A stretch of DNA of 64,000 bases, taken from positions 1 to 64,000 of the IMG/VR virus record IMGVR_UViG_3300027542_000007. One strand, given 5' to 3'. The translations under genes and the position numbers were made by a program. The notes under the pieces were generated by a model. It saw only the letters and a program-made list of their open reading frames with translations. It was not told the origin of the DNA and searched no databases. Shown piece by piece: positions 12,535 through 15,913 of the stretch (its first letter is position 1; each line of letters begins with the position of its first letter). This stretch comes from an uncultured virus (IMG/VR IMGVR_UViG_3300027542_000007) (taxonomy: Duplodnaviria > Heunggongvirae > Uroviricota > Caudoviricetes).

Positions 12535-12643
12535 CAAAAAGGAAGAGGGACAGAAATATGCTGTCCCTCTTTTATTTATAATTGTAGTAAAATAAAAATA
12601 GTTATACATATAATTGATAGAAAATAAAGCATAGTGCTAATAA

Positions 12644-12715
12644 TGGGCATTCGCCAAGAGGTAAGGCACGGGACTTTGACTCCTGAATTCGTTGGTTCGA
12701 ATCCAATATGCCCAG
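12644..12715 (+). tRNA. tRNA-Gln(TTG)
   Basis: TGGGCAT/ATGCCCA acceptor stem, CT-TTG-AC anticodon loop, GGTTCGAATCC T arm; CCA not encoded. Confidence 0.93.
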
Positions 12716-13088
12716 TTCGGCTGAGTGGGTTAATCTCTGCCGAATCGTTGTCGGTAATTGCTGGGGGGCAGTAACGATACCGGCCTATGGTGCACGGCCG
12801 CTAAGAAAAGCCGGCAGTATCTGCGTAGAATGCAGGGTGCGGCTATGGCGGTTAGAGTACAGCAGTGCTATACCAAAATGTAATGAGTGTTAATCGTGTA
12901 GCGATTGGGGTTAGAGCTCGCTCCGAAAGAGAATCGCAGTGTAAGTGTTAACACCTGCTCCGCAAGTGGCGGTAATTGAATGGTAATGTGTAAGACTCAG
13001 CACTGAATCAAAAGAAAAGAGTCTGAGATATAGCTCGCCGAGAGAGGCAACAGCAGATGCAGTTAGCATACGTTGGCGATCTTAACCC
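12716..13088 (+). ncRNA. Unidentified highly structured ~370-nt RNA between two tRNAs
   Basis: GC-rich island with many stems (TTCGGC/GCCGAA, GTGTTAA/TTAACAC, GCGATT/AATCGC, AGACTC/GAGTCT), GNRA-type loops, and 5'-loop GGGTTAA complementary to 3'-end TTAACCC. Confidence 0.7.
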
Positions 13089-13163
13089 GGGCCATTAGCT
13101 CAGCTTGGTTAGAGCAACCGGCTCATAACCGGTCGGTCATAGGTTCGAGTCCTATATGGCCCA
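13089..13163 (+). tRNA. tRNA with CAT anticodon, most likely tRNA-Ile2 (lysidine type)
   Basis: GGGCCAT/ATGGCCC acceptor, CCGG-CTCATAA-CCGG anticodon arm; body resembles Bacillota Ile2 rather than initiator Met. Confidence 0.9.
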
Positions 13164-13281
13164 TCGAAATCGGGTTTTTGGTTTCCTTATTATTTCTGGG
13201 TGTCGGTAATCCGGCACCCGGATTATTTTTTCTCCTTAAACATTACATTAATATACGCATTACATAAGGAGGAATTATAGT

Positions 13282-13704
13282 ATGCTTTTAAGAAATGAAA
13301 GTCGAGTTAGGCATTTTGTGGAAATTAATTTGACATATGATGATAAGGAAAGTAATAATCTAATAGTTAATGAAGGAGATAACGTAGCTATCAGTTTTAG
13401 AAAAAATGGAAGGATAGCTATGGGAGAAGGAAAGATTACAGAAATAAAGGTGCAGCATAGAGCAAGATGTAACGGTTTTGGAATGAAGGAAACTGCCATC
13501 TTAGAAATAGATATGTCTGGTGATTGCAATTCACAAACTGAAAGTGTTGATATACGAGATATAATAGACATTAGAAAATTAGTTCCAAAGCATTGTCATA
13601 AATGCGATAAAGTAGATCCTAGCTTTATAGTTAAGCCTAAAGATAAAGATACGATTGGAGTGGTCGGGATGCCAATATCTCCAGGGGGTGTAATAGGTGA
13701 ATAA
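13282..13704 (+). CDS. Hypothetical protein, apparent paralog of 43526-44149
   Basis: EGDNVAISF..GKITEIKV..LEIDMS..DIRDIIDIR resembles VGEMVSIQF..GRVMDIKV..VLDCS..KMIDILQIR. Confidence 0.75.
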   Translation: MLLRNESRVRHFVEINLTYDDKESNNLIVNEGDNVAISFRKNGRIAMGEGKITEIKVQHRARCNGFGMKETAILEIDMSGDCNSQTESVDIRDIIDIRKLVPKHCHKCDKVDPSFIVKPKDKDTIGVVGMPISPGGVIGE

Positions 13705-14674: not shown

Positions 14675-15913
14675 ATGAATGTAAAATGTATTGGTATTGG
14701 AGCCGCAGGAAATAAGGCGGCAATTACTCTGGTGGAAAAGAAAGTACTGGCACAGGATAATGTATTATTAATCAATTCTACATTAAAGGATATCCCTGCA
14801 GATTACAAGGGGCTGGCTGTGGAATATGTTAATTCTTATGGCGGCTGCGGGAAAGAAAGAAAAAATGCGTATGATCTTGCAGTAAACTCCATTAAGGCTG
14901 GAAAGATCCCGCTGGATGATTTTCTCAATATTGGAAAAAGCAATGAGGCGGAGCTGGTAATCATTGTAACTTCAACTGAAGGCGGTACAGGTTCTGGTTC
15001 ATCAATTATTATTGGTAAGTATATTAAGAGCCATTACGACATCGATGTGCATATGTTCGGATTTGTTGGGTTCAAGACCGACCCAAGGGGTCTGAAGAAT
15101 ACAGTAGAGTGGTTTTCGGAGCTGCAGGAAGATTTTGCGGTGGAAGCTGTTGAGAACAGCAAGTACTTACCAGAATGCCGTGGAAACAAGATCAAAGCAG
15201 AGAAGATGGCGAACGAAGACTTTGCTAACAAGATTGGCATTCTGATCGGAAATACAATCAGATATTCAGAGCACAATATCGACCCGACTGATCTTCTTAA
15301 AGTGTCTGCAAAGCAGACTGGATTTATGGTAATTGAATCTGCGAATTTTGAGAAGATCAAAAACAAAGAACAGTTCGAGGCGATGGTTGTCCGTATGATT
15401 GACGATAGCAAATCAGTTGATGTGAGCAATGTTAATGCTAAGAAATCTGCGGTGTTCCTGAATATTAGTCCGGCTTCTACTGATTTTATCTCTTATGAAG
15501 AAATCATTACCGAGAGGTATGGGGAGAGATATGAGAATTACGAGCATATTCAGCACGAAGCTGATATGCCAGAGTTCTTTGCGATTATCATTGCTGGTAT
15601 GAAAATGCCGGTAGAAGAAATCCAAAGAGTATATACCGAATATAAAGACCGCATGGGGCAGGTTGACCGTTCAGGAGACGACTTCTTTGCATCTGTAAGT
15701 GCATTGTCGTTCGATGATGATGATGATCTGTCGATCCATGGCAAAAAGAAAAAGACTATGAGCGACGATGAGTTCTTTGCGAATCTCGATAAACCAGTTG
15801 ATTCTCCGTCTGCTTCAACAAAAGTCGTGCGGCCATCTGCTGAAGGGAGTGAGTCCAGTGGGAAATTCTCTAATGTAAGAGTAGAGAAAGCAGACATCGC
15901 AAAAGAATATTAG
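14675..15913 (+). CDS. Tubulin/FtsZ-family GTPase (PhuZ/TubZ-like)
   Basis: IGIGAAGNKA, GGCGKE, signature GGTGSG, NIDPTDL; long charged C-terminal tail. Confidence 0.9.
   Translation: MNVKCIGIGAAGNKAAITLVEKKVLAQDNVLLINSTLKDIPADYKGLAVEYVNSYGGCGKERKNAYDLAVNSIKAGKIPLDDFLNIGKSNEAELVIIVTSTEGGTGSGSSIIIGKYIKSHYDIDVHMFGFVGFKTDPRGLKNTVEWFSELQEDFAVEAVENSKYLPECRGNKIKAEKMANEDFANKIGILIGNTIRYSEHNIDPTDLLKVSAKQTGFMVIESANFEKIKNKEQFEAMVVRMIDDSKSVDVSNVNAKKSAVFLNISPASTDFISYEEIITERYGERYENYEHIQHEADMPEFFAIIIAGMKMPVEEIQRVYTEYKDRMGQVDRSGDDFFASVSALSFDDDDDLSIHGKKKKTMSDDEFFANLDKPVDSPSASTKVVRPSAEGSESSGKFSNVRVEKADIAKEY

Follow-up and report, generated by a model that had tools for sequence, protein, structure and literature searches.

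A GC-rich 373-nt stretch fitted between two tRNA genes of an AR9-like gut jumbo phage is probably an orphan non-coding RNA

What fills the 373 nucleotides between two tRNA genes of an uncultured virus, and is it an RNA in its own right? The window analyzed here is the first 64 kb (64,000 nt) of a 74.9-kb virus contig, with an overall GC content of 33.7%. The RNA polymerase subunit encoded at position 13697 is ~33% identical to proteins of Staphylococcus phage SA1 and the Bacillus phages Goe21, PBS1, and AR9, so that the source is, by its sequence, an uncultured AR9-like gut jumbo phage; the genes nearby encode split RNA polymerase beta-type subunits, a PhuZ-like tubulin, a UvsX-like recombinase, and topoisomerase II, and the habitat is mouse or mouse gut wherever it is recorded for sequencing runs with a usable share of phage sequence. 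Large phage RNAs beside tRNAs are a long-standing puzzle: GOLLD and ROOL occur within tRNA islands and assemble into RNA-only cages (PMC12286853; here and for the other papers cited, from the part of the text available), and RNAC and RNAD of phage T4 are late RNAs from the phage tRNA region whose function is unknown (PMC9697503, PMC3014915). The stretch described here is probably a real orphan non-coding RNA, in a setting of this known kind and of a family not found in current databases. An RNA of another family with exactly predictable ends would make a cheap target for probing and cryo-EM, the reach of the finding and the scope for genetic tests being limited by an uncultured phage and an RNA seemingly confined to one clade.

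The first evidence is that of fit and composition, and here the earlier note on this DNA was right on both counts. The stretch occupies the entire gap between the tRNAs, starting one base after tRNA-Gln(TTG) and stopping one base before the CAT tRNA, with spacers of zero length. It is GC-rich, at 49.6% against 33.7% for the window, and contains the top-GC 373-nt segment among 1,273 sampled; the 13 other gaps longer than 150 nt in the contig range from 23 to 40% GC, and 16 group I introns of related phages from 29 to 41%. The downstream tRNA carries the ARAGORN label Met, and we take it to be plausibly or probably Ile2 on the basis of its identity features. Two otherwise near-identical related loci (L161:7886-7959 and L163:8560-8633) differ from each other in the gene after the CAU tRNA and in that tRNA's anticodon arm. 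As for coding content, a 61-aa frame beginning within the tRNA and a 52-aa antisense frame were both judged incidental. The features of the locus are collected in Table 1.

Table 1. Features of the tRNA operon and of the candidate RNA, in window coordinates
Feature	Position	Strand	Basis or remark
Intrinsic terminator, end of upstream gene block	12541..12573	+	Terminator prediction; also scores on the - strand
TACA-N6-TG, putative start of the tRNA operon	12605..12616	+	One-off variant of the AR9 late promoter motif; function inferred
tRNA-Gln(UUG), CCA not encoded	12644..12715	+	tRNA calls
Candidate non-coding RNA, 373 nt, 49.6% GC, without Rfam match	12716..13088	+	tRNA bounds, Rfam, GC
5' hairpin TTCGGC/GCCGAA plus GAG/CTC; 9-nt loop contains GGGTTAA (12727-12733)	12716..12744	+	Prediction only
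Local hairpin of 7+6 bp with a GGGGG loop, pair probabilities 0.85-0.9	12750..12784	+	Prediction
Stem domain with the best local 60-nt z-score (-2.8, 16 windows)	12797..12852	+	Prediction
CAGCAG, Q-like word; potential partner of the P-like word, in the group I reading only	12860..12865	+	Sequence, descriptor
GGGTTAG, alternative partner of the 3' end; overlaps P7-like 5' strand (12912-12918)	12908..12918	+	Sequence, folding
Helix AGACTC/GAGTCT, pair probability 0.91	12993..13024	+	Prediction
GAGATATAGCTC, S-like word; read as group I, J8/7 plus P7'	13025..13036	+	Sequence, descriptor
3'-terminal TTAACCC, complement of the 5' hairpin loop; also 5' leader of the following tRNA	13082..13088	+	Sequence
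CAU-anticodon tRNA, CCA not encoded	13089..13163	+	ARAGORN = Met(CAT)
Intrinsic terminator, end of the operon	13195..13222	+	Terminator prediction

Does the stretch belong to a known family? The Rfam search returned the tRNAs alone at gathering score and zero matches within the stretch at E<=10. RNase P RNA is absent, as had been asserted from the sequence, with RF00010 and RF00011 both unmatched (controls above cut-off in 8 and 2 of 14 genomes), and so is tmRNA, for which neither a match to RF00023 (controls above cut-off in 9 of 14) nor tRNA-like ends nor a tag frame was found. The GOLLD model RF02032, which describes the conserved 3' domain, gave 0 matches at E<=10 in a search where no control genome rose above cut-off, and the ROOL model RF03087 gave 0 matches at E<=10 in a search that had no positive control. 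The RNA may represent the new class suggested in the earlier note, a suggestion compatible with the absence of a match to GOLLD, ROOL, RNase P, tmRNA, or group I. Judging by titles and abstract openings, no publication evidently describes it, and three short words taken from it had no match in the portions searched of the supplementary files of two RNA-candidate catalogues (PMC10690425, PMC8040213).

The likenesses are those of setting and size. As GOLLD does, the stretch adjoins phage tRNAs; like both GOLLD and ROOL it would be a large tRNA-adjacent phage non-coding RNA, loop-mediated long-range pairing is possible in it, and it equals in size the 3' domain of GOLLD, which measures 375 nt in Streptococcus agalactiae (PMC12990946). 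In contrast to them, it matches neither model at E<=10, is shorter than full GOLLD and than ROOL, whose mean length is 581 nt (PMC5737381), and has turned up in one narrow clade only. It shares with T4 RNAC and RNAD the proposed character of a late RNA of the tRNA region, whereas those are small RNAs of an unrelated phage, compared with it by description.

The HDV ribozyme layout, with its placement of P3/L3, provides a further comparison, and no theta/HDV-like ribozyme was found in the stretch: the nested double pseudoknot with P3/L3 is absent by inspection, and no HDV-type Rfam model matches. The RNA can form a G.U-capped first helix of 7 bp that includes the tRNA discriminator, which resembles theta ribozymes, but cleavage before that G would take the discriminator away from the tRNA, and the second-helix strand is separated from the 3' strand of P1 by a mere 5 nt, which leaves no space for P3/L3. 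Theta ribozymes, by comparison, are minimal HDV-like ribozymes and begin directly at the 3' end of gut-phage tRNAs (PMC10879173).

The most distinctive feature is the relation between the two ends. A 5' hairpin had been described and is present, with TTCGGC (RNA nt 1-6) complementary to GCCGAA (nt 24-29). The putative pseudoknot between its loop and the 3' end stands as a complementarity, GGGTTAA (nt 12-18) being an exact complement of the last 7 nt (nt 367-373); TTAACCC also has a second possible partner, GGGTTAG at nt 193-199, with a duplex energy of -7.4 kcal/mol for either. Among 20,000 dinucleotide shuffles, a 6-bp hairpin at the 5' end occurred in 1.6% and complementarity of the 3' end to the 5' region in 0.4%, and both together in 3 (0.015%), in a test devised after the feature had been seen. 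Hairpin and end-to-loop complementarity are thus unlikely to have come together by chance. The 5' hairpin can be retained in a nested fold, with the two pseudoknot strands unpaired, that lies at most 2 kcal/mol above the minimum, which counts in favor of a non-coding RNA whose two ends probably pair with each other.

The remainder of the predicted fold is less distinctive, and several structural claims of the earlier note found little or no support here. That the RNA is "large structured" finds no support in whole-RNA folding (z -0.90, with 18 of 100 shuffles as stable), and of the nested stems the local helices are indeed predicted, but perfect 7-bp helices number 4 against 3.0+/-2.2 expected, which is the level of chance. 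The enclosing ATCGTTG/TGGCGAT helix shrinks to ~4 bp (30-33/361-364), because A29 and G35 are taken by adjacent helices, and the GAAA, GCAA, and GAGA loops are weak, each having a single contiguous closing pair. In the stem domain of Table 1, a CUAAG/UAUGG pair imperfectly resembles an 11-nt tetraloop receptor.

Is the stretch transcribed? The AR9 late promoter consensus is AACA-(6N)-TA/G (PMC5312081), and of 14 related loci, 11 have a motif of the form [AT]ACA-N6-T[AG] in the 300 nt preceding their first tRNA; in the gaps of this genome as a whole, the late-promoter-like motif is not enriched (10 against 7.2+/-2.6). The expression data are the assembled contigs of 4 of 21 listed runs, with no DNA control, and uncovered bins were not taken as absence; X5 and X6 are recorded RNA runs of one study, X8 is RNA by guess and comes from another study, and the type of X1 is also guessed. 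The contigs of the two recorded RNA runs extend over 12743-13079 (X5, depth 13.9) and 12739-13091 (X6, depth 15), and that of X8 over 12775-13034 (depth 2.9), whereas the coverage of X1 is patchy throughout and has the look of DNA. Of 30 bins, 8, 5, 7, and 15 have any depth in X5, X6, X8, and X1, respectively, and X6 has depth in just one bin outside the block of tRNAs and RNA. That the contigs of the RNA runs keep within the bounds of the RNA is a weak hint of expression. The X6 contig continues past 13091, just after a CCCGGG junction, for 25 letters unlike the phage sequence, which could stem from a second allele of the tRNA, from a circle junction, or from a fold-back artefact.

Variation among the runs is sparse within the RNA. 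Two substitutions are listed, 12900 A>G and 12935 C>T, and they either preserve a pair as G.U or fall where the RNA is unpaired, depending on the fold. Run X1 has 1 change in 281 nt of the RNA against 59 in 1,277 coding nt (p 1e-4), a contrast that disappears once the tubulin-like gene is left out (1/281 against 6/656, p = 0.68). In X1, that gene (14675-15913) departs from the window by 25 bases in 377 and by 28 in 244, the other pieces differing by ~1%, which suggests allele exchange or a second strain.

Taken as a whole, the context (zero spacers, CCA-less tRNAs, terminators, the late-promoter-like motif, the GC peak, and the RNA contigs) supports a discrete processed non-coding RNA, and the release by tRNA processing that the earlier note envisaged gains from that context while being itself inferred. 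Our preferred reading, to which we give about an even chance, is a late-transcribed phage RNA that is freed by tRNA processing, stabilized by the pairing of its ends, and similar to GOLLD, ROOL, and T4 RNA C/D without being a member of these families. The phage's own late RNA polymerase would produce a single tRNA-Gln/RNA/tRNA-CAU transcript from ~12616 to 13222. In Firmicute tRNA processing, RNase Z and RNase P act at the two tRNA ends concerned, so that a cut by host RNase Z after the Gln discriminator and one by RNase P at position +1 of the CAU tRNA would release exactly 373 nt; helices starting at both cut sites could hinder the two enzymes, which counts against the reading. Nucleotide 1 would open the 5' helix and the last 7 nt would pair into its loop, within or between molecules, and with both ends paired exonucleases would find no free end, so that the RNA is proposed to accumulate late in infection. 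Given these steps, it is possible, if doubtful, that the RNA forms a compact or multimeric RNA-only body like those of GOLLD and ROOL and serves as a decoy or scaffold diverting a host RNA-directed defence or an RNA-binding protein, the least supported step of the scheme.

The foremost alternative starts from a resemblance to group I introns, which are common in phages related to this one: RF00028 matches in 10 of 14 related records, in 3 above cut-off. A remodelled intron (~nt 7-363) would have been inserted in a short ancestral tRNA spacer, with nt 12-29 as an internal guide pairing both exons (P1, P10), and it would either still be excised poorly or have been domesticated as a non-splicing or tRNA-processing ribozyme. 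The RNA is similar in size to the introns of jumbo and Twort-like phages (RF00028), and its P-like AATTGCTGGG is the consensus word of the introns of related phages. P-, Q-, P7- (with a bulged A and a G-C pair), and S-like elements follow one another as in group I introns, with a motif-chain score equalled in 13 of 1,500 shuffles and a helix-aware score in 90 of 30,347. A helix of 3-5 bp stops just before G363, and the 3' end could pair over 7 bp with the P1-like loop, with G361 or G363 as candidates for the terminal G and an imperfect register; in P1/P10 geometry, likewise, a single segment pairs with both ends (PMC3984707). In 5 near-identical relatives without the RNA, tRNA-Gln is likewise followed by TTCG, the first four bases of the stretch, a finding compatible, under any reading, with insertion into an old spacer.

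Against this, RF00028 matches nothing in the stretch at E<=10 and finds no group I intron in the 74.9 kb of this phage, and a profile HMM built from 16 related introns did not detect the RNA. In covariance models built from related and cultured-phage introns, with the two halves scored separately, the 3' half reached 1.9 bits and the 5' half had no plus-strand match, below backgrounds of up to 12.6 and 15.3 bits, whereas held-out introns serving as positive controls scored 17-93 bits. The group I descriptor gives 18, mostly from one word and with an extra P7 pair allowed post hoc, against 52-58 for true introns. In group I introns, P1 places a U.G pair at the 5' splice site, and J4/5 is A-rich. 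Read from the sequence, every candidate 5' splice site has C-G or U.U in place of U.G, a G-run stands where J4/5 should be, and no convincing P3 lies next to P8. Forcing the fold into group I form costs ~20 kcal/mol, P3 not yet counted, and the P-like word AATTGCTGG (12756-12764) sits inside the 12750..12784 hairpin, so that the local-hairpin and group I readings compete for it. The stretch is, moreover, intergenic rather than within a gene, and its GC content is much higher than that of the introns. A joint that skips the element is absent from all 4 contig sets, among the pieces listed, a weak argument. The RNA is not a member of the group I introns as its sequence stands, and descent from one is a minority reading that we regard as unlikely; if it is true, a self-splicing intron would have turned into a new RNA gene. 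Group I introns are numerous in the related jumbo phages (12, 6, and 6 matches at E<=1 in G008, G007, and G002), and the custom models also found one at L122:17758-18153 (55.6 and 17.4 bits) that lies below the Rfam gathering score.

The search for homologs bears on the next alternative, an insert, GC-rich and either without function or captured recently, that is co-transcribed with the tRNAs and then discarded, its end-pairing coincidental. Pattern scans of viral and genome contigs and synteny yielded identical copies only (L110, L120/L121, L146); the loose scan of viral contigs gave at least 119 loci, which were screened, and the remaining matches of the scans were unrelated. Blastn against phages and plasmids found no homolog (in plasmids, 3 records matched over 30 nt at E 1), nor did whole-record BLAST of 14 related records (best E 0.28). 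Among 46 loci located through the neighboring polymerase gene, 2 are identical and 44 lack the RNA; 16 of these 44 retain tRNAs upstream of the same gene, which weighs against the non-coding RNA reading, as does a single-sequence model of nt 1-140 that matched 0 of 19 other whole records and 0 of 30 loci. Three of the loci (L161, L163, L169) have the same two tRNA types ~107 nt apart, and a relative of 68% identity (L147) keeps the gene order and has neither tRNAs nor RNA at the locus; closer relatives are known at the protein level, with cluster representatives at 75-97% identity. The RNA thus seems restricted to one narrow clade, on the sequences compared. This distribution, the different GC-rich pieces that relatives bear at the locus, and a folding z-score (-0.90) and long helices at the level of chance count in favor of an insert; the exact tRNA-to-tRNA fit, the end-pairing seen in 3 of 20,000 shuffles, the few and pairing-compatible substitutions, and RNA contigs within the bounds speak against it, and no source turned up in phages, plasmids, or pattern scans. 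We consider an insert of this kind improbable.

Also rather improbable in our judgment is a group I core that has lost splice-site docking and is kept in the tRNA operon as a free-standing ribozyme or scaffold, the old guide clamping its ends and the RNA possibly freeing itself. Were this so, the ORF-less group II-derived nucleases would have a group I counterpart, and the large RNAs of phage tRNA islands a suggested origin. That the stretch is a far-diverged ROOL member or GOLLD 3' domain, for which the shared context and the 375 nt of the S. agalactiae domain (PMC12990946) speak, is very unlikely given that RF02032 and RF03087 remain unmatched at E<=10 (the latter without positive control) and that ROOL averages 581 nt (PMC5737381).

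The related loci hold further candidates. A rod-like RNA of ~100 nt (L124:8160-8270, L151:8172-8280, L152:2897-3005, L154:2977-3085, also L150) starts at a late-promoter motif ~240 nt upstream of tRNA-Gln; it has no Rfam match and shows both-sided changes in 4 of 32 predicted pairs among 4 sequences, three of them near-identical. Other GC-rich hairpin elements lie between the promoter motif and tRNA-Gln at L161:7600-7700 and L166:8340-8500 (also in L163 and L169), so that the locus seems to collect small RNAs. Finally, 3' of the polymerase subunit gene, L127:10830-11350 is a GC-rich and apparently non-coding stretch of ~500 nt, without an Rfam match at E<=1, that contains a repeated hairpin, and a GC peak is also present in L134.
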